From NCBI GenBank assembly GCA_046485165.1, contig JAWOHM010000029.1:1-11496 (forward strand): a DNA stretch of 11,496 nt, given 5' to 3'. This document shows, piece by piece, positions 1,750-9,420 of this stretch; the first letter of the stretch is position 1, and each line of letters starts with the position of its first letter. The translations under genes were made by a program, and so were the position numbers. The notes beneath the pieces are model-generated. The model was not told the DNA's origin. It saw only the letters and a program-made list of their open reading frames with translations, and searched no databases. Source of the DNA: Thermoplasmata archaeon. GTDB taxonomy: Archaea > Thermoplasmatota > Thermoplasmata > SG8-5.

Positions 1750-1953
1750 ATGCCTGACATCAAGTACAGCGCCCACGCCAGGAAGCGGATGGTGGAGCGC
1801 GGCATCTCGCCCGGGGAGGTGCGGGAGGCCATCAGCAAGGGCAGCAAGTCCCTGGACGGCAGCCTGATAACCTCCGTTCACCGGCACCTGAAGGTAGTGT
1901 TCCGGAGAATCAACGACGACTGGTATGTGATAACAGTGATGCTGAGGTGGTAG
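1750..1953 (+). CDS. DUF4258-family protein, a putative type II toxin (67 aa).
   Basis: The N-terminus MPDIKYSAHARKRMVERGISPGEVREAI matches the DUF4258 signature (I.YS.HA..RM.ERGIS..EV.E.). It is small and overlaps or abuts the downstream antitoxin-like gene. A TATA-like tattatat lies about 27-34 nt upstream, consistent with a leaderless transcript. Confidence 0.7.
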   Translation: MPDIKYSAHARKRMVERGISPGEVREAISKGSKSLDGSLITSVHRHLKVVFRRINDDWYVITVMLRW

Positions 1954-1955
1954 TG

Positions 1956-2288
1956 ATGAAGAAATGCCCGATATGCGGAAGAAGTGCCCTGAAAGAGGCA
2001 AAGGTCGAGGAGGAGATGTTCGGAGTGGGCCTGGGCCAGTACGATGCCGAGGTCTGCCAGAAGTGCGGAGAATCGTTCCTTGACCAGAGTGAGATGGAGA
2101 GGATGGAGGCCAGAGCCAAGGAGCTGGGGGTCTGGGGACTCGGAAAGCGCATCAAGGTGGTGAAATCAGGAAATTCCTTAAGCGTCCGAATTCCTGCACA
2201 GATAGCGGAATACCTGGACTTGACAGAGGGCAAGAGCGTATTCCTGTACCCGGACGGGAAGGACCGCATCGTCGTGGAAGTCAGTTGA
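1956..2288 (+). CDS. Putative antitoxin with an N-terminal YgiT/MqsA-type zinc ribbon (CPICG...CQKCGE) and a C-terminal AbrB/MazE/SpoVT swapped-hairpin domain (KVVKSGNSLSVRIPAQIAEYLDLTEGKSVFLYPDGKDRIVVEV).
   Basis: Motifs recognised by eye. GAGGTG at 1944-1949 is a ribosome-binding site 6 nt before ATG 1956. The alternative GTG start at 1947 given in the track overlaps the toxin stop. The final codon and stop (AGT TGA) are supplied by the first IS-type unit. Confidence 0.7.
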   Translation: MKKCPICGRSALKEAKVEEEMFGVGLGQYDAEVCQKCGESFLDQSEMERMEARAKELGVWGLGKRIKVVKSGNSLSVRIPAQIAEYLDLTEGKSVFLYPDGKDRIVVEVS

Positions 2289-2512
2289 ATGCAACATCCA
2301 GCAATTGAAAACAGCGCATTCGACGATGGCCCGTTAAAATATCCAAACTGAATCCAGGGCCATGTGACTCGAAACATTCTGCCAGCAATCGGTGCATTCG
2401 ATTCTAAATGCAAGCGATGTAGAGAATGCGCCATGGGTAGTCACTTTCCAAGCAAACACTCCCACTGCGAAAGGCCGGTAATCTGCAATCACCAAACAAT
2501 GAGATTACCGGG
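2283..2512 (+). mobile_element. IS200/IS605-type end unit A. It starts AGTTGAATGC and contains four hairpins: gaatgc/gcattc, atggccc/gggccat, gcattc/gaatgc and ccggtaatc/gattaccgg.
   Basis: Units B and C are homologous to it. The hairpin stems are conserved through compensatory substitutions. It lies next to tnpA. Confidence 0.6.
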
Positions 2513-2570
2513 GAAGAGCGTCTTCCTGTACCCGGACGGAAAGGATCGCATCGTTGTGGAAGTCGATTAG
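2510..2570 (+). pseudogene. Displaced 3' fragment of an AbrB-type antitoxin gene (…GKSVFLYPDGKDRIVVEVD*). It is a diverged duplicate of 2224-2285.
   Basis: About 90% nucleotide identity to the 3' end of the intact antitoxin gene. There is no start or N-terminal coding part. The N-terminal portion of track ORF 2364..2570 lies inside the repeat unit. Confidence 0.6.
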
Positions 2571-2626
2571 TACTTTCGCCCACCCCCTGTTCCGACTTAT
2601 ATACCCGCCTCTTCATAGCCCCACCC

Positions 2627-3040
2627 ATGAAAGCAGAACAGTGGGGAAGGAGGCACACGTCCAGCATGTTGACGGATCACATGGTCTTTACCACGAAATT
2701 CAGAGCGAAGGTGCTGGTCGGGAAGATCGCGGAGGACTGCGATGCCACAATCCGAAAAACATGCAAAAACCTGGACATCGAAATACTGCAAATGGCCGTG
2801 GCCGAGGACCATGTGCACCTGTTCGTGCAGCATCCCCCCGAATTAAGTCCCAGCAAGATGGCTGAGAAGGTGAAGAGCAATTCCAGCCGGGAACTCAGGG
2901 CGGCGCACCCAGAGCTGGTGAAATGGTGCAAAACAGGGCTGTGGGCGCCTGGGTGTTTCCATGGCAGTGTGGGGCACGGGTTCGATGTCGTCGAACAGTA
3001 TATCAAAGGCCAGCAAAAATACAGAAGAAACGATAGTTGA
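2627..3040 (+). CDS. tnpA: IS200/IS605-family Y1 (HuH) transposase TnpA (137 aa).
   Basis: Carries the HuH motif HVHLFV, the conserved DHMVFTTKFR block, and the catalytic-Tyr region VVEQYIKGQ near the C-terminus. Length is typical. A TATA-like cttatatacc lies about 25 nt upstream. The stop codon is supplied by AGTTGA of unit B. Confidence 0.9.
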   Translation: MKAEQWGRRHTSSMLTDHMVFTTKFRAKVLVGKIAEDCDATIRKTCKNLDIEILQMAVAEDHVHLFVQHPPELSPSKMAEKVKSNSSRELRAAHPELVKWCKTGLWAPGCFHGSVGHGFDVVEQYIKGQQKYRRNDS

Positions 3041-3261
3041 ATGCGAATGGTTACAAATAATTCCTTAGCATTCGACGATGGCGCGGCAACATTTAATAAC
3101 TAAATCAGCGCCATAAATTCACTTCATTTAGCAAACAAATGGTGAATGCGAATCTAAATCCAAAAAGAAAAGAGCATTCGCCCTGGGTAGTCATTTTAAA
3201 AACAAACATTCCCACTGCGAATGGCCGGTAATCGGCAATTTGCATGCAATGAGATTACCGG
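3035..3261 (+). mobile_element. IS200/IS605-type end unit B. It starts AGTTGAATGC and contains four hairpins: gaatgc/gcattc, atggcgc/gcgccat, gaatgc/gcattc and ccggtaatc/gattaccgg.
   Basis: Collinear with units A and C. It overlaps the last codon and stop of tnpA. Confidence 0.6.
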
Positions 3262-3461
3262 AATTAAGTCCCAGCAAGATGGCTGAGAAGGTGAAGAGCA
3301 ATTCCAGCCGGGAACTCAGGGCGGCGCACCCAGAGCTGGTGAAATGGTGCAAAACAGGGCTGTGGGCGCCTGGGTGTTTCCATGGCAGCGTGGGGCACGG
3401 ATTCGATGTGGTGGAGCAATACATCAAAGGCCAGCAATCATATAAACGATACGGTAGTTGA
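3262..3461 (+). pseudogene. Truncated tnpA covering only the C-terminal ~67 codons. It is fused directly to the terminal hairpin of unit B.
   Basis: The first ~135 nt are identical to tnpA 2838-2972, after which the sequence diverges. The HuH motif and N-terminal half are missing. The start codon of track ORF 3240..3461 lies inside the hairpin. Confidence 0.7.
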
Positions 3462-3681
3462 ATGCGTCTGTAATCTTTTGCCGGTAGAGCATTCAACCAT
3501 GGCGCGATAACAATCTGCAAACTAAATAAGCGCCATAAAACAACCATCAACTAAACAATTGGTGAATGCGAAAACTAAATCCAAACAGGAAAAAGCATTC
3601 GCCCTGAATCAACATTCTATAAATAAACAGATTCAAGAAATTTCGCCGTAATCGCCAATCTGGAATCGATGAGATTACGGC
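3456..3681 (+). mobile_element. IS200/IS605-type end unit C. It is the most diverged copy and its last hairpin is gccgtaatc/gattacggc.
   Basis: Same AGTTGAATGC start and the same four-hairpin layout with compensatory changes. It overlaps the stop of the tnpA fragment. Confidence 0.55.
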
Positions 3682-3776
3682 GAGAAACACTTTCGGTGAC
3701 CCCCCGTCAACCCTTTTATACCATTTCGAAGATAGGGGATGCAACCGATCACCGGTAAGAAAAAGGAAGTGATCCA

Positions 3777-5087
3777 ATGGCACAGAAATATGAGAAGGAC
3801 GTAAAGGATATTTTGAGCATCCTGGGCGAGGACGCGGACAGGAAAGAGATAGAGAAGGAATTGAAGAGCTACATCGAGGAATTCAGGCTTTCTGCCGTCG
3901 AGGCGAAGAAACTCGTGCTCAGAAAGCATGGGGCGGGAAGCGCCGCAGGGCCCGAGGCCATGGATAAGACCATCAAGGAACTCACGCCGATGGACAAGAA
4001 CGTCAATGTTCTTGGCCGGGTGCTGTTCGCGGCCGAGAAGGTAATCAAAGCCGACGGCAAGGAGAAGGCGATAATATCGGGCATACTGGGCGACGAGTCC
4101 GGAACCGTTCCGTTCACCCACTGGGAGAAGGGCGCGCTCAGCCTGGCCAAGGGCGACGTCATCCGGCTGGAGCATGCCTATGTGACCGAGTACAAGGACG
4201 AGCCGCAGCTGAACATCGGCAATCGTGGGAGAATCACGAAGCTGGACAAGTCAGAGATGCCCGAATACAAGGGCGCGGCATCCAGGCCTGCAAGGGCTTG
4301 CAAGGTGTCCGAGCTTGGCGAGGCTACAGGCAACATCTCGCTTGTCGCCCGCATCCTGGAGATGGAATCCAGGGAGGTGACGGTCAGCGGGGAGAAGAAG
4401 GACGTGCTGAGCGGCATAATGGCCGACGAAACCGGAAAGGTATCCTTCACCTGCTGGGGGAAGTGCAAGGTCAAGGAGGGGGACGTGGTTACGGTGCATA
4501 CCGGATACCTGAGAAGGTGGAGGGGCATGCCCCAGTTCAATTTTGACGCGGCCAATGCTGAAAAATCCGATGAGAAGATGCCGAAGAGCACGGAACTCCA
4601 GAAACCCTCGCTGGTGACAATCGAGCATCTGGCCAGGGTGGGGGGAATGGTCGACGCCTCCATTAACGGCGTGGTCCTGGACGTTCGCGAGGGCAGCGGC
4701 CTGGTGGAGAGATGCCCGGAGTGCAACCGGGTTCTCCAGAAAAGCGAGTGCCGGCTGCATGGCAAGGTCGAGGGAAAGGACGACCTCCGGGTCAAGGCGA
4801 TAGTGGATGACGGCACAGGCGCGATAAGCGCCATCATGGGCCGGGACATCACCGAGAAGCTGCTCGGGAAATCCATGGAAAAGTGCCTGAAGGAGGCGCA
4901 GAAGGCCATGAGCCGCGAGATTATCTGGGACCAGCTTTTCCAGAAACTTGTCGCAATGCCGGTCTGCGTATCCGGGAATGTCACATCCGACGACTTCGGG
5001 CTCATGCTCATTGCCACGTCCACCGAGTTCCTGAACGAGGACCCGCAGGACAGGGCCAGGAAGATGCTGGAAGAGGTGATGGAATGA
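3777..5087 (+). CDS. rpa: Replication protein A (RPA1-like) single-strand DNA-binding protein with three OB folds and a C4 zinc ribbon (CPECN...CRLHG).
   Basis: OB-fold repeats and a zinc ribbon typical of euryarchaeal RPA41/RPA70-like DBD-C. The ribosome-binding site is ggaagtgat. The stop overlaps the next start (ATGA), indicating translational coupling. Confidence 0.8.
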   Translation: MAQKYEKDVKDILSILGEDADRKEIEKELKSYIEEFRLSAVEAKKLVLRKHGAGSAAGPEAMDKTIKELTPMDKNVNVLGRVLFAAEKVIKADGKEKAIISGILGDESGTVPFTHWEKGALSLAKGDVIRLEHAYVTEYKDEPQLNIGNRGRITKLDKSEMPEYKGAASRPARACKVSELGEATGNISLVARILEMESREVTVSGEKKDVLSGIMADETGKVSFTCWGKCKVKEGDVVTVHTGYLRRWRGMPQFNFDAANAEKSDEKMPKSTELQKPSLVTIEHLARVGGMVDASINGVVLDVREGSGLVERCPECNRVLQKSECRLHGKVEGKDDLRVKAIVDDGTGAISAIMGRDITEKLLGKSMEKCLKEAQKAMSREIIWDQLFQKLVAMPVCVSGNVTSDDFGLMLIATSTEFLNEDPQDRARKMLEEVME

Positions 5088-6052
5088 AATCCAGGGAGAT
5101 AGCATGGAGGATGCTTGCGGGGGAACTGAACGATTCCTCGCTGGTTGTCACAAGCGATGAGGAGAGGGCGCCAACCTATGTCATAACGCCGCTGGGCGCC
5201 AAGGTGAACCGCGTGTACATCGTGGGCGTGGTCACAGACCTGGAGAACGTTGGCACCCCTGACGAGGCAAGGTGGAAGGCAAAAATAATAGACCCGACCG
5301 GCACCACATACGTTTCGGCCGGCCAGTTCCAGCCCGAAGCTGCAGCCGCGATGTCGAAACTATCCGTCCCGGGTTTCGCGGCGGTCATCGGCAAGGTCCG
5401 GGTCTATAGCCCAGAGGAGGGGGTCATGTACATCTCCATCCGCCCGGAGGTCGTGAGGGCCGTGGACAAGAACATACGGAACTCATGGGTGATGGACGCC
5501 TGCGCCTCCCTGAAGCAGAGGCTGGAGGCGAACTCGGAAGCCAGCAAGATGGATGGAATAAGCGCAGAAGGGCTCGCAAGCCTGGGCTTCAGCCAGAACC
5601 TTGCGGAAGGCATTGTCTCCGCAAGGGAGCATTATGGCGAGGACATCCCCCTGGAAAAATATCAATCGATGCTCATCGATTCCCTGAGGTCCCTCATTCC
5701 CGAGGAGGGGGGCGCGCCTGACCTCCCGGAACCGGAAGAGGCAAAAGAGCCGGAGCCGGACGATTACGATGAGTTCGAGGAGAGCGTGGACATCCCGCCA
5801 ACCCCACCAGTGGCGCAAGATGAGCCGGCCGGGAAGGTGGAGTCCGACGAAGAACTGACCGACGATGAGGAAAAACTGCTCAAGGTCATAACCGCCGAGG
5901 ACCCGAAAACCGCAGGCCTGGACTGGGACATGCTTGCTAAAGCGGCCAAGAAGGCCGGGCTTAAAAAGGAAGCTTTCGAGGAAGCCATAGAAGGATTGCT
6001 GGACAAGGGCCTGATATACGAGCCGATGCTGGGGAAGATCCGCAAGATATGA
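5084..6052 (+). CDS. RPA2/RPA32-like subunit with an N-terminal OB fold, an acidic linker and a C-terminal winged-helix domain.
   Basis: An OB-fold-like block VNRVYIVGVVTDLENVG..., a long Asp/Glu/Pro linker and a C-terminal wH-like helix. Coupled to rpa by the ATGA overlap, with AGGTGA 5 nt upstream. The track's longer ORF from 4883 is an in-frame upstream extension overlapping rpa and is rejected. Confidence 0.65.
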   Translation: MKSREIAWRMLAGELNDSSLVVTSDEERAPTYVITPLGAKVNRVYIVGVVTDLENVGTPDEARWKAKIIDPTGTTYVSAGQFQPEAAAAMSKLSVPGFAAVIGKVRVYSPEEGVMYISIRPEVVRAVDKNIRNSWVMDACASLKQRLEANSEASKMDGISAEGLASLGFSQNLAEGIVSAREHYGEDIPLEKYQSMLIDSLRSLIPEEGGAPDLPEPEEAKEPEPDDYDEFEESVDIPPTPPVAQDEPAGKVESDEELTDDEEKLLKVITAEDPKTAGLDWDMLAKAAKKAGLKKEAFEEAIEGLLDKGLIYEPMLGKIRKI

Positions 6053-7043: not shown

Positions 7044-8183
7044 ATGGTATTCAGCAGAGGAAGGAGCAAGGACGGGGACGTTGCCAGGAACACATACACC
7101 TGGCCCAATGAGTACAAGGGCGAGAACATAATGTACAGGCTGCCCACGAACATCTATTACAACGACAACATCATCGTCATGGAGGACGAGTTCGCGGTGT
7201 TCCTGAGGGACGGGAAGGCCATGCATGTGTTCGACCAGGCCGGGCGCTACGCGCTCACAACCCAGAACGTGCCGATACTCAGGGAGATATTGCCAAAGCT
7301 CACCGGCGTCAAACAGCTGGGAGAGGTTTACTATATCCAGAGGCGCGAGCTGAGGGGAAAGTTCGGCACACCGGAGCCGCTGACATTCAGGGACGCGGAT
7401 TTCGGCCTAGTCCGATTGAGGGTGTTCGGCCAGTTCTCCTACAAGGTGGTGGAGCCGATGCTGTTCATCACGCAGTTCGTGGGCACCAGGGGCTGGTCCG
7501 GCTCGGACGAGGTCATAGAATGGCTGAGGAGCGAGCTCATCCAGAGCGTCAACGATGTCCTGGGCGAGCTGAAGAGGGACAAGAACATGGCAGTCGTGGA
7601 CATGCCGGCCTATGTCAATGAGATTGAGCAGCTCATCCTGGGCAAGATAGACAACGAGGCGAAGAGGTACGGCCTTGACATAACCAATCTGGCTGGCATC
7701 ACAATCACACCGCCTCCGGAAGTGCAGGCTGCAATCGATCGCAGGGGAGCGATGGGCGCCCTTGGCGTCAATTACATGGAATACCAGACCGGAAAGGCCA
7801 TCGAGGGCGTGGGCGAGGGCGCGGCCAAGGGCGGCGGGAATGCGACCGCCGCAATGGCTGGCCTGGGAGCCGGCGCCGGCATTGGCATCGGCATGGGCGG
7901 AGCCATGGGCCAGGGCATGCAGCAGGGCAGTTCCCAGAAGCAGGTCATGGTGAAATGCCAGGAGTGCGGCGCGCTTGTCGCGGAGGACGCAAAATTCTGC
8001 AAGGAATGCGGCAAATCCATGGTGAAAGCCGGCACCGTTAAATGCCCGAAGTGCGGCGATGCCAATACTCCAGATGCAAAATTCTGCGATGAGTGCGGCG
8101 CGCCAATGAAGGTCAAGTGCCCGAAGTGTGGTAAGGAACAGGCCGGGGCGAAGTTCTGCAATGAGTGCGGAACGCAGTTGTAA
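7044..8183 (+). CDS. SPFH/Band-7-like protein (Band_7_1, YdjI-like). It has a Gly/Met/Ala-rich linker and three C-terminal zinc-ribbon repeats (KCPKCG...AKFCxECG).
   Basis: The N-terminal region resembles B. subtilis YdjI. A low-complexity G/M/A/Q linker is followed by zinc ribbons, as in YdjI. The ribosome-binding site is GGTGA. Confidence 0.65.
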   Translation: MVFSRGRSKDGDVARNTYTWPNEYKGENIMYRLPTNIYYNDNIIVMEDEFAVFLRDGKAMHVFDQAGRYALTTQNVPILREILPKLTGVKQLGEVYYIQRRELRGKFGTPEPLTFRDADFGLVRLRVFGQFSYKVVEPMLFITQFVGTRGWSGSDEVIEWLRSELIQSVNDVLGELKRDKNMAVVDMPAYVNEIEQLILGKIDNEAKRYGLDITNLAGITITPPPEVQAAIDRRGAMGALGVNYMEYQTGKAIEGVGEGAAKGGGNATAAMAGLGAGAGIGIGMGGAMGQGMQQGSSQKQVMVKCQECGALVAEDAKFCKECGKSMVKAGTVKCPKCGDANTPDAKFCDECGAPMKVKCPKCGKEQAGAKFCNECGTQL

Positions 8184-8281: not shown

Positions 8282-9241
8282 TCACAGCTTCAGCTCGTAG
8301 TGGACGTTCTCCTGCTCCACCCTGTAGCCCATGGAAAGGTATAGTGAAAGGGCTTTGCTGTTCTGGGCCTCCATGCCCAGGTACAATATGTCCATGCCCT
8401 GCCCGCGGAGCCATGTCATAGAGTCAGTCAGCAACGCGCGGCCCAGCCCCAGCCGCCTGTGGGGTTTCTTCACGCCGAGGATGTTGGTCCATCCCGCCTT
8501 CTTGTTGTTCTGCTCGTTGTATCTCAATTCGATCGCGTAAAAACAGACGCCCGCAATCTCCCCGCCCTTGGTGGTTGTGGTGAGCCAGTATATGCCATCC
8601 TTCGCTTTGATGGTCTCGTCCCTGACCTTGATGAACCTGTCCTCGGGGATGGCTGAGAAATTCCAATGGTCCTGAAAGGAATCATTGAATGCCCTGATGA
8701 ACTCCTTCAATTCATCGTCAGAGCATTCCAGCATGTTCTTTCTGGATAGGGAGTATCCATCAGGCAACGCCGGGGTTGGGCTGGAAAGGGGCTTGTCGCA
8801 TATCATCAGGTAGCCATGCCTTATGTCCTTCATTCCCTGCCTGATTGCGAAATCGTTTCTCCAGCCGGATGGCTCGGGTGCCCAATACCTGAGGGATTCG
8901 ATGCCTCTGGCTCTGAGATATTCTGCGGTTAGATTGAAAATGTGCTCCTCGATGCCCTTGCCCCTCAATTCCGGAACAATGAACAAACTCACCTGCGCAT
9001 CCTTGATGCCGCTCTCGAATCTGGATTTTGATATCATGGAACCACCGAAGGCCACCGGGGTGTCACCGTCAAACCCAATCAGGTAGCCGGCAGGGTCGAA
9101 GTCCTTCTCCCCGAACAGCCAGGTGCGCATGTTCTCCACTGTATCCTCAACGTGGTGCCTCAGTTCTCTTGTGCTGCGATTGATGACATCTATCATGGCC
9201 TCCGCATCGGCCTCGGTCGGATGGCGGTACTCAATGTCCAT
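8282..9241 (-). CDS. GNAT-family N-acetyltransferase with two tandem acetyltransferase domains.
   Basis: Duplicated acetyl-CoA-binding-like motifs (e.g. RGKGIEEHIF... and RRLGLGRALL). The start at 9241 (MDIEYRHPTEADAEAM) is preferred, because the in-frame upstream extension to 9340 runs through the repeat-rich intergenic region. Confidence 0.8.
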   Translation of the reverse strand: MDIEYRHPTEADAEAMIDVINRSTRELRHHVEDTVENMRTWLFGEKDFDPAGYLIGFDGDTPVAFGGSMISKSRFESGIKDAQVSLFIVPELRGKGIEEHIFNLTAEYLRARGIESLRYWAPEPSGWRNDFAIRQGMKDIRHGYLMICDKPLSSPTPALPDGYSLSRKNMLECSDDELKEFIRAFNDSFQDHWNFSAIPEDRFIKVRDETIKAKDGIYWLTTTTKGGEIAGVCFYAIELRYNEQNNKKAGWTNILGVKKPHRRLGLGRALLTDSMTWLRGQGMDILYLGMEAQNSKALSLYLSMGYRVEQENVHYELKL

Positions 9242-9281
9242 GAGACCGGGGTATTCTCTCCGGAATAAAATAATTGCCGGA

Positions 9282-9420
9282 GGATTGGCGATTTTAGATT
9301 TAGGGATTTTAGATTTTAGATATAACGAGCTGGCCGTCAATTACGGCCAGCTAATCTAACCACTTGGCAGGCGATTTCCTGGCACAAATCTACAATCTAA
9401 AATCGAAAATCTACAATAGC
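9282..9420. promoter_or_regulatory. Repeat-rich intergenic region containing arrays of GATTTTAGAT, a perfect hairpin agctggccg-tcaatta-cggccagct, and inverse copies ATCTAAAATC / AAATCTACAAT.
   Basis: Read directly in the sequence. It lies between the htpX stop and the GNAT start on the minus strand. On the minus strand the T-rich tagattt tracts could act as an archaeal terminator, and the stretch could also hold GNAT promoter elements. Confidence 0.4.

Follow-up and report, generated by a model that had tools for sequence, protein, structure and literature searches.

A stretch of DNA of 11,496 nt from a Thermoplasmata archaeon (contig JAWOHM010000029.1; this whole stretch is called the window below) holds a tnpA gene for a Y1 transposase and, close around it, three hairpin-rich repeats of about 230 nt, here named units A, B and C. 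The locus raises the question whether these units are the ends of an insertion sequence or repeats of another kind. The original prediction, made from the window, described a tandem array of IS200/IS605-type end units with tnpA between A and B, and left it open whether each unit is a left end (LE), a junction of a right end (RE) with an LE between head-to-tail copies, or a derivative like a miniature inverted-repeat transposable element (MITE). The answer that we favour is tentative, as it falls a little short of an even chance: an IS200-type transposase that has been immobilised, together with a dispersed, cognate structured repeat, in the manner of the repetitive extragenic palindromes (REPs) and their REP-associated tyrosine transposases (RAYTs). 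REP/RAYT systems are the textbook example of a host retaining a transposase and its short repeats after the enzyme had ceased to copy itself.

The three units are collinear on the + strand and were found within 1-2 nt of where they had been predicted, at 2284..2511 (A), 3036..3261 (B) and 3457..3681 (C), the cores being measured from GTTGAATGC to the 3' foot of the last helix. Our covariance model of the unit hits 2282-2515 with 205.5 bits (E = 1e-55), 3034-3265 with 198.1 bits and 3455-3685 with 193 bits, and whole-length alignment gives identities of 71% (A-B), 62% (A-C) and 72% (B-C). Each unit has five conserved hairpins, P1 to P5, with stems of 6-10 bp and loops of 17-25 nt; the predicted hairpins are all present, but only four had been counted and P4 (TGGGTA..CCCA or TGAATC..GATTCA) had been missed. 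According to the unit alignment the helices of unit A are P1 2284-2292/2316-2324, P2 2326-2332/2357-2363, P3 2391-2399/2424-2432, P4 2434-2439/2459-2464 and P5 2475-2482/2504-2511; those of unit B are P1 3036-3044/3068-3076, P2 3078-3084/3108-3114, P3 3141-3149/3174-3182, P4 3184-3189/3209-3214 and P5 3225-3232/3254-3261; and those of unit C are P1 3457-3465/3489-3497, P2 3499-3505/3530-3536, P3 3561-3569/3595-3603, P4 3605-3610/3630-3635 and P5 3645-3652/3674-3681. A search pattern made of P1 and P2 matches three times in the window, with 0.00 matches expected from 200 shuffles. The P1 and P3 stems are nearly alike (GKTGAATGC/GCATTCGMC) and ATG starts both P2 and P4, hence the unit looks like a duplicated two-hairpin module with P5 added.

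The compensatory changes named in the original prediction are present in the sequence, namely ATGGCCC/GGGCCAT versus ATGGCGC/GCGCCAT in P2, CCGGTAAT/ATTACCGG versus GCCGTAAT/ATTACGGC in P5, and the flipped gaatgc/gcattc stem of unit A in P3, where A has GGTGCATTC/GAATGCGCC and both B and C have GGTGAATGC/GCATTCGCC, a difference of two double substitutions. The claim that the structure is under selection was borne out by covariation over 52 homologous units. In this set 95.8% of the pair cells form pairs, against 86.1% in shuffles and 31-40% when the partners are slid; both sides have changed in 21 of the 39 pairs, and 192 cells are compensatory against 63 in shuffles, a value reached by none of 500 shuffles. 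The covariation is carried by P2 to P5, while P1 varies little. We also considered that the 3' strand of P1 might pair with the 5' strand of P3, and rejected this because such pairing is lost where P3 covaries. We therefore regard the secondary structure as selected, as far as alignments can tell. Almost every unit keeps a U·G wobble in P1 (49/52) and another in P3 (50/52), and elsewhere G·U outnumbers A·C by 44 to 18, which places the fold on the tnpA-sense strand. Single-sequence RNA folding of the + strand gives z = -2.1 (A), -3.3 (B) and -4.7 (C) against shuffles, and for unit B folded as DNA the z values are -3.8 (+ strand) and -2.9 (- strand). Unpaired motifs are conserved in loops and linkers as well: CTAAAT in two loops, GCAATC and CGATGA. 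A kink-turn or C/D-like motif in the P5 loop and a hammerhead core (CUGAUGA..GAAA) were also considered and dropped, since by inspection their bases are off consensus and Rfam is silent.

To place the units in a wider family, relatives were searched with the P1+P2 pattern in a one-genome-per-species collection, and a covariance model built from 41 copies was then applied to the loci found (numbered with L below). The pattern scan gave at least 54 loci, 52 of them in nine metagenome-assembled genomes (MAGs) of Methanomassiliicoccales/Thermoplasmata; the two bacterial matches were set aside as chance. With the covariance model at least 55 full units were found in those loci, some of which the pattern had missed, and each MAG has at least 1-13 units (about 4-13 in the eight better-sampled MAGs). 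In keeping with the original prediction, the units are homologous to one another just up to their borders, and the additional copies have kept the hairpins. Identity within a genome is just 70-84%, apart from the pair L010/L018 at 95%, and for some units the site is orthologous between genera (L004/L016, L003/L020 and those downstream of tnpA). Seen from these alignments, the family is an old, dispersed and structure-conserved one of the Methanomassiliicoccales/Thermoplasmata clade. By these relatives, the source of the window is likewise judged to be an archaeon of that group. The L010/L018 pair shares 44 extra nt on the 5' side (L010 3855-3901, L018 3119-3165) with two tight hairpins, the first being ATGCCCCGC..GCGGGGCAT and the second GCATT[T]CAAC-CTC-GTTGAATGC, where the pairing between the 5' strand of P1 and DNA upstream spans a bulged T; this extended unit may possibly be the form that can still be copied. 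The borders themselves carry little else: among 57 copies the 4 nt before GTTGAATGC have no consensus and no target tetranucleotide, no short target duplication of 3-10 nt was seen in the units without a flanking gene-end copy (see below), and upstream of the units there are variable AT-rich boxes at -10 to -45 and no fixed promoter at a set distance.

The units sit closely against genes. Of 27 units followed by a convergent gene, about 20 have the stop codon of that gene -1 to +3 nt from the P5 foot; some subfamilies have a longer P5 (CTGTAAW..WTTACAG), which takes the stop codon into the stem. Upstream genes on the same strand end from -5 nt to about 50 nt before the unit, and in the 5-6 cases at -5 the TGA of GTTGA serves as their stop codon; in all, 33 units share the strand of their upstream gene and 22 lie on the other. 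This abutment is not evidence for a target motif, because both the spacing and the stop codon used vary. We would rather attribute it to the units having resided for long in genomes that are compact, and the terminal hairpins may in addition have a role as RNA at gene ends.

We then asked how tightly the units are tied to the transposase. The tnpA gene of the window (2627..3040, + strand) encodes 137 aa, and its TGA stop lies inside unit B. The protein matches Pfam Y1_Tnp with 99.5 bits (1.8e-28) and has NCBIfam transpos_IS200 as its best model (118 bits, cut-off 55), while the RAYT model REP_Tyr_transpos gives 27.1 bits with a cut-off of 80. Its relatives in the PDB are 2ec2 (2e-17) and 2a6m (9e-16), and the HUH motif (DHVHLF) and the catalytic tyrosine (QYIKGQ) align with those of the solved IS200/IS608 transposases, so that the catalytic motifs are intact. 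The prediction of a TnpA-only transposase as the sole protein of the array is thus correct and agrees with the IS200-type profile: there is no tnpB in the array, and neither tnpB nor iscB near any unit. Exact look-ups of the TnpA and antitoxin protein sequences of the window gave no record.

A unit begins at or overlaps the tnpA stop in the window, L025, L048/L066, L056-58, L059/60, L061-64, L067 and L069/70, where TnpA is at least 67% identical; counted by genome, this is found in at least 8 of about 11 genomes with such a TnpA. Just a 12-nt remnant of the unit remains at the tnpA stop in L065, and L055, the sole locus from the metagenome scan that has TnpA, has no unit. No unit stands beside TnpA homologues at 56-63% identity, and one MAG has a second TnpA paralogue, 56% identical, without a unit. 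The units also cluster near the gene: the window holds three, L048 has four in a stretch of 4 kb, and in L061 tnpA has one to either side. At least 45 further solo units are found at gene ends, and tnpA homologues are present in 3 of the 54 loci selected by their units.

The surroundings of tnpA are conserved. A DUF4258-MazE toxin-antitoxin pair adjoins it in most genomes, and an RPA gene, a RadA gene or a convergent gene for an MBL-fold protein lies downstream. The order toxin, antitoxin, tnpA is kept in at least 8 genomes, and with DUF4258 and MazE in particular it recurs in L048/L066, L061-64, L065, L068 and L069/70. Each TnpA protein cluster comprises 1-7 contigs, all of the same locus, and no genome was seen to hold several near-identical copies of a tnpA-containing element, a result that is provisional for MAGs. 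From these comparisons tnpA appears to behave as a resident low-copy gene and not as a mobile insertion sequence. The predicted alternatives of LE, RE or RE-LE junction did not hold up, as tnpA is never found within a split unit (whole units stand on one or both sides of it in the window, L048, L059 and L061), no distinct left end recurs next to tnpA, where just a general promoter lies upstream, and a conserved target tetranucleotide is lacking. Nor can we uphold head-to-tail copies of an insertion sequence, given the conserved synteny and low copy number of tnpA and given that the units are scattered alone, differ as much as they do and have long duplications in about 30% of cases. Of the three options left open at the start, the MITE-like derivative is closest to what we find.

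These duplications of gene ends are the second main feature of the system. In 16-17 of about 55 units (~30%) the DNA upstream of the unit (D) is repeated right after it (D'), in copies of 21-211 nt that are 72-98% identical and give alignment scores of 27-323, where shuffles reach about 25 at most. The start of D' falls in a range from 5 nt ahead of the P5 foot to 4 nt past it, D ends 0-82 nt before the unit, and the opening 1-5 nt of D (GG, CGG, ACGG, CCGG) equal the closing nucleotides of the unit, which makes the junction one of microhomology. The duplicated segment always comes from the gene on the 5' side of the unit; where that gene is on the same strand its 3' end is copied, and where it is on the opposite strand its 5' end. 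L004 and L016 hold an orthologous unit with the extra copy in one genome and none in the other. We rejected a diversity-generating retroelement with D' as template and D as variable repeat, as the D/D' differences are not adenine-specific and there is no reverse transcriptase. Selection for gene integrity was likewise rejected as the reason for D', as a simple insertion at the same place yields the same protein, hence D' is a by-product. Microhomology-joined duplications of this kind are a recurrent and localised route to partial gene copies and altered C-termini, and the window holds two different tnpA tails.

In the window the array is collinear as predicted, but it is not simply tandem, for gene-end copies flank unit A and precede units B and C; the 3' end of the antitoxin gene is duplicated around unit A, and the last ~200 nt of tnpA precede both B and C. 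D(A), the copy that is joined to the antitoxin gene body, lies directly 5' of unit A at 2228..2282 (direct repeat D5, 55 nt, 91% identical to 2510-2564). The orphan antitoxin end D'(A) at 2510..2570, with the translation KSVFLYPDGKDRIVVEVD*, overlaps the final GG of unit A and keeps the native TAG stop and the native run-on into the tnpA promoter. The antitoxin now ends ..VVEVS* by way of a TGA (2286-2288) in the first bases of unit A (GAAGTC A GTTGA), and the orphan copy retains ..VVEVD*. At the empty sites L059 and L048 the antitoxin gene runs into the ACTTTC promoter of tnpA with no unit between them, just as D'(A) does, and therefore both unit A and the extra antitoxin copy are derived. 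D(B) comprises the final ~200 nt of tnpA (2837..3035) and is repeated after unit B (direct repeat D1, 209 nt, 93% identical, 2837-3045 versus 3258-3466), with an alignment score for D(B)/D'(B) of 323 against a shuffle maximum of 25. The orphan tnpA fragment D'(B) at 3258..3461 (ELSPSK...GQQSYKRYGS*) has no start codon, begins in the last bases of unit B and has its stop codon inside unit C. All these features are on the + strand. The layout tnpA, unit, tnpA fragment, unit is common to the window, L048/L066 and L059; the junction is identical in L048/L066 and L059 (CCGG|ACCA[CT]GTCCA), and that of the window lies 30 nt further in than in L048/L059. In the window the first 120 nt of the tnpA copy are 99% identical and the next 80 nt 78-88%, with the units at 60-78%, which would fit a recent repeat of the copying event, or gene conversion, over an older arrangement.

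We suggest the following course of events for the REP/RAYT-like system. One resident low-copy Y1 (HUH) gene would be inherited in a fixed neighbourhood of toxin, antitoxin, tnpA and unit; it would have ceased to move as an insertion sequence, with the structured DNA at its 3' side persisting as free-standing copies. TnpA would bind the + strand hairpins when they are single-stranded, at the replication fork or in transcription, and would nick at or near the P5 3' foot. The D' events at the P5 3' foot point to such a nick, or to a stall there, followed by backward template switching: the nicked end, or a polymerase stalled at the hairpins, would switch template back to GG/CGG microhomology 20-210 nt upstream and so yield the gene-end copies around the unit. 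Copying that goes on through the unit would yield (D-unit)n arrays such as tnpA-end/B/tnpA-end/C in the window, and those in L006, L048 and L059. New unit copies would be made rarely, by the same enzyme. Since the units are co-transcribed with the neighbouring genes, it is probable that they have a further function as RNA hairpins at gene ends, in the way of REPs.

Further, we speculate, with doubts that somewhat outweigh our confidence, that this is the first REPIN/RAYT-like system in archaea, arisen independently from an IS200-subclass transposase, in which a toxin-antitoxin-linked Y1 enzyme maintains 230-nt elements while its activity at the P5 foot copies gene ends by microhomology template switching. 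In the literature examined, REP/RAYT systems are confined to bacteria; REPINs have been stated as not detected in archaea (bioRxiv 10.1101/2021.07.10.451892), and a 2018 survey found archaeal TnpA only of IS200 subclass 1.1 and treated these as ordinary insertion sequences (PMC6006769). A tool paper of 2025 does report 'REPs' in archaea, with a loose definition by which any intergenic palindrome counts and with RAYTs unmentioned (PMC12306157). If the proposal is true, the genomes would have a built-in source of gene-end duplications and new C-termini, the transposase would be an independent domestication, or a stage between insertion sequence and REPtron, and the units would offer a concrete substrate set for what Y1 enzymes recognise when loops are large.

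Several points weigh against the explanation that we prefer. We infer solely from position and co-occurrence that TnpA would act on the unit, and by its profile scores the protein is of IS200 type, not of RAYT type. The known substrates of IS608 and ISDra2 TnpA and of RAYTs are tight hairpins, unlike the unit with its loops of 17-25 nt. Close to tnpA there is also the repeat 'h' (described below), which has the architecture of a classic IS608-type TnpA hairpin and may be another, or the true, TnpA substrate. Units occur in tens at most, not hundreds, and as the related genomes are all MAGs the unit copy numbers are lower bounds and the low copy number of tnpA is provisional. There is little sign of current mobility of the units, given 70-84% identity and one pair at 95%. 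The conservation of P1 is inflated, since the search pattern partly fixed it, and the conserved unpaired motifs along with the tolerance of G·U would also fit a functional RNA.

This last point leads to the rival that has to be taken most seriously, although we consider it unlikely: the unit as a structured RNA module, either a cis element at gene ends (for 3'-end protection, termination, insulation of convergent genes or regulation of the gene with whose stop codon it is in contact) or a set of paralogous small-RNA genes. Then tnpA would merely carry one copy as its 3' untranslated region (UTR), and the duplications would be due to hairpin-induced replication slippage. The strong covariation, the one-strand U·G wobbles with G·U in excess of A·C (44 versus 18) and the conserved loop and linker motifs all agree with an RNA, as do copies that are old and diverged with the structure kept, some of them at orthologous sites across genera. 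So does the placement at gene ends, where stop codons abut the P5 foot or use GTTGA; bacterial REPs are known to act as RNA at gene ends in such a manner (PMC3479197). On the other hand Rfam 15, which includes the omega-RNA/IS605-orfB motifs and ribozymes, gave no match at E <= 1 for the whole window on both strands, and there is no conserved promoter at a fixed distance. The orientation of the neighbours is mixed (33 same, 22 opposite), hence the unit cannot be the 3'-UTR element of one fixed partner, and an RNA module leaves unexplained both the unit at the tnpA stop in at least 8 genomes and the clusters of 2-4 units. Were it the right explanation, the units would form a new and well-supported family of structured RNA of ~230 nt without a counterpart in Rfam. 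The RNA module and the REP/RAYT-like system are not mutually exclusive.

Two other explanations start from mobility. In one, which takes the original prediction in its strongest version and which we hold to be improbable, the unit is the RE of a fossil IS200-like element composed of Y1 as the LE, promoter, tnpA and unit, into which the toxin-antitoxin genes lodged later, and the scattered units are solo or MITE-like derivatives of the RE mobilised in trans by peel-and-paste. Y1 denotes an element at 1193-1352 of the window that folds into a long hairpin (-69.7 kcal/mol, z = -5.85), contains a TATATATA stretch and is conserved upstream of tnpA in the same orientation in seven cases (window, L025, L048, L056, L061, L065, L069). 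In L025 it abuts the tnpA promoter in a compact block of ~900 nt, and elsewhere the toxin-antitoxin genes intervene. The left end of Salmonella IS200 holds a terminator hairpin, which the long hairpin of Y1 resembles; the protein is IS200-type, and the block stands upstream of RPA in some genomes and of RadA in others, suggesting past movement. Yet Y1 is found only beside tnpA and never with the scattered units, which thus have no left end, tnpA is never inside a unit and has whole units on both sides, no genome has several near-identical blocks, and no border tetranucleotide is conserved; moreover, peel-and-paste does not make long flanking duplications, and an end of 230 nt with five hairpins far exceeds the known IS200/IS605 ends. 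The other, a retroelement like a short interspersed nuclear element (SINE) copied through RNA by target-primed reverse transcription, seems to us very improbable. It could account for a fixed 3' junction with an upstream copy that ends 0-82 nt before the unit, for the 44 extra 5' nt of the recent pair L010/L018, and for duplications of 21-211 nt with microhomology at the 3' junction. It is at odds with the lack of any A-rich or other simple 3' tail, with duplicated segments that always come from the 5' side, and with a DNA transposase as the sole gene specifically tied to the units; when the open reading frames (ORFs) of the 54 loci were clustered, host genes and tnpA were all that was obtained, with no recurrent large ORF, reverse transcriptase, integron integrase or other tyrosine recombinase near the units.

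The gene content of the window was obtained by comparing its ORFs with Pfam and NCBIfam, and the order on the + strand is toxin, antitoxin, unit A, antitoxin 3' copy, promoter-like region, tnpA, unit B, tnpA 3' copy, unit C, promoter-like region and RPA. The toxin gene (1750..1953, + strand, 67 aa) belongs to the DUF4258 family (Pfam DUF4258, E = 1.3e-10) and opens the toxin-antitoxin pair that accompanies tnpA in most related genomes. The antitoxin gene (1947..2288, + strand, 113 aa) combines a YgiT/MqsA-type zinc ribbon with a MazE/AbrB domain (Pfam MazE_antitoxin 1.4e-07, NCBIfam YgiT_finger). The pair of DUF4258 toxin and zinc-ribbon/MazE antitoxin stays by tnpA across genera (window 1750-2288), with the order reversed in L074, where a truncated unit adjoins the antitoxin gene of the pair. 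PIN-type pairs are located there in L056 and L065, and the tnpA locus looks like a hot spot for toxin-antitoxin modules.

The promoter-like region before tnpA (2571..2626, + strand, TACTTTCGCCCACCCCC..CTTATATACC) has the motif ACTTTC-N4-ACC..TTTATATACC found upstream of tnpA in all related loci. A second promoter-like region, of the ACTTTC..TTTATACC type, precedes the RPA gene at 3688..3776 (+ strand) and begins 7 nt past unit C, and the same layout of unit, promoter and RPA is seen in L056-58. In fuller form the motif is (A)TACTTTC-N4-ACCC-N10-12-TTTATATACC, at 2571-2605 and 3688-3722 of the window; in many places it begins just 3-7 nt past the 3' end of a unit, and it precedes tnpA, RPA, RadA and unrelated genes. 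We had considered its presence both before tnpA and after unit C as a third target duplication, but the motif also precedes many unrelated genes, which makes it a promoter of a general type rather than a target duplication. The replication protein A (RPA) or single-stranded DNA-binding protein gene itself (3777..5087, + strand, 436 aa) scores 390 bits with NCBIfam PRK07218.1, under the cut-off of 447, and has Pfam OB folds; it is a downstream neighbour, outside the element. Ordinary neighbours are also the genes at 7044-8183, for an SPFH/Band-7 protein with three C-terminal zinc-ribbon repeats, and at 8282-9340, for a GNAT acetyltransferase on the opposite strand. Upstream of the toxin gene about 800 nt (960-1750) have no convincing ORF and many local hairpins (e.g. 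1375-1400, 1408-1450, 1448-1480, 1483-1512), and parts of this region match DNA upstream of tnpA in L057.

Other repeats were observed around tnpA. Repeat 'X' is present as two tandem units of ~250-285 nt at 436-965 of the window, each starting CCAAGTGAATGCAC, 79% identical and without a match in Rfam, and it has a covarying hairpin (GCGCTTTGC..GCAAAGC in the window, GCGGTTTCC..GGAAACC in L065). Its copies are restricted to loci selected by tnpA (L056/57 x2, L061/62, L065 x4, L069, L071) and occur in none of the 54 selected by units. The repeat 'h' mentioned above is ~42 nt long, TTCCRAATGTCC-N4-GGACTTYGG-ATGGAGATAAAA, with a 9-bp stem, one bulged T and a 4-nt loop. It is absent from the window and lies at 597/1796/1937 in L061, at 1003/1296 in L069 and at ~3040-3070 in L048, and also inside the P3 loop of units in L016, L023, L035, L037 and L051, its orientation always being that of the units and tnpA. 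A small dispersed GC-rich hairpin, CCCCGCCCTNACAGGCGGGG, was found in L002, L023, L027, L032, L040, L042, L049, L050 (e.g. 5509-5522) and L055, in many cases no more than a few hundred nt away from a unit; although a 14-mer is common to it and Y1, the two elements are different. A dispersed left end based on this 14-mer was rejected, as the shared letters belong to two things, the tnpA-linked Y1 and the small GC hairpin.

How, then, does the locus compare with known systems? It resembles TnpB/IscB omega-RNA in that a structured stretch of ~150-250 nt overlaps the 3' end of a transposon gene and ends at the element border, but the units occur alone and far from any nuclease gene, and they have no Rfam match; with no tnpB or iscB near any unit we rejected that identity. 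Like the attC sites of integrons, the units are conserved in their folded single-strand structure over sequence and form arrays of (gene fragment - site)n, whereas an attC site consists of one imperfect hairpin, the 'cassettes' of this system are copied from adjacent gene ends and are not foreign ORFs, and no integron integrase or other tyrosine recombinase recurs near them. With IS200/IS605 (IS200, IS608, ISDra2, and their PATEs/MITEs) the locus shares the TnpA family with its HUH and Y motifs, the lack of tnpB as in the IS200 group, and strand-specific structured DNA next to tnpA on the tnpA-sense ('top') strand. It differs in that the units are not distinct LE and RE, that tnpA lies outside the element, that there are neither multiple identical copies nor a target tetranucleotide, and that flanking duplications of 21-211 nt occur. 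The likeness to REP/BIME-RAYT systems is found in a Y1 HUH gene that is low in copy number, passed on vertically and bordered by structured repeats of its own, in further copies of these repeats dispersed over extragenic DNA, for the most part at the ends of genes or between convergent ones, and in a conserved hairpin structure that persists for long in the lineage. The differences are the archaeal host and the IS200-subclass protein, a unit of ~230 nt with five hairpins and large loops where REPs are palindromes of 20-40 nt or doublets of ~100 nt, and units that flank the gene in direct and not inverted orientation, number in tens and not hundreds, have no GTAG/CGTC tag and show long imperfect duplications at one border. 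The units and tnpA work like a REPtron, and as these families are defined they are a member of neither RAYT/REP nor IS200/IS605.

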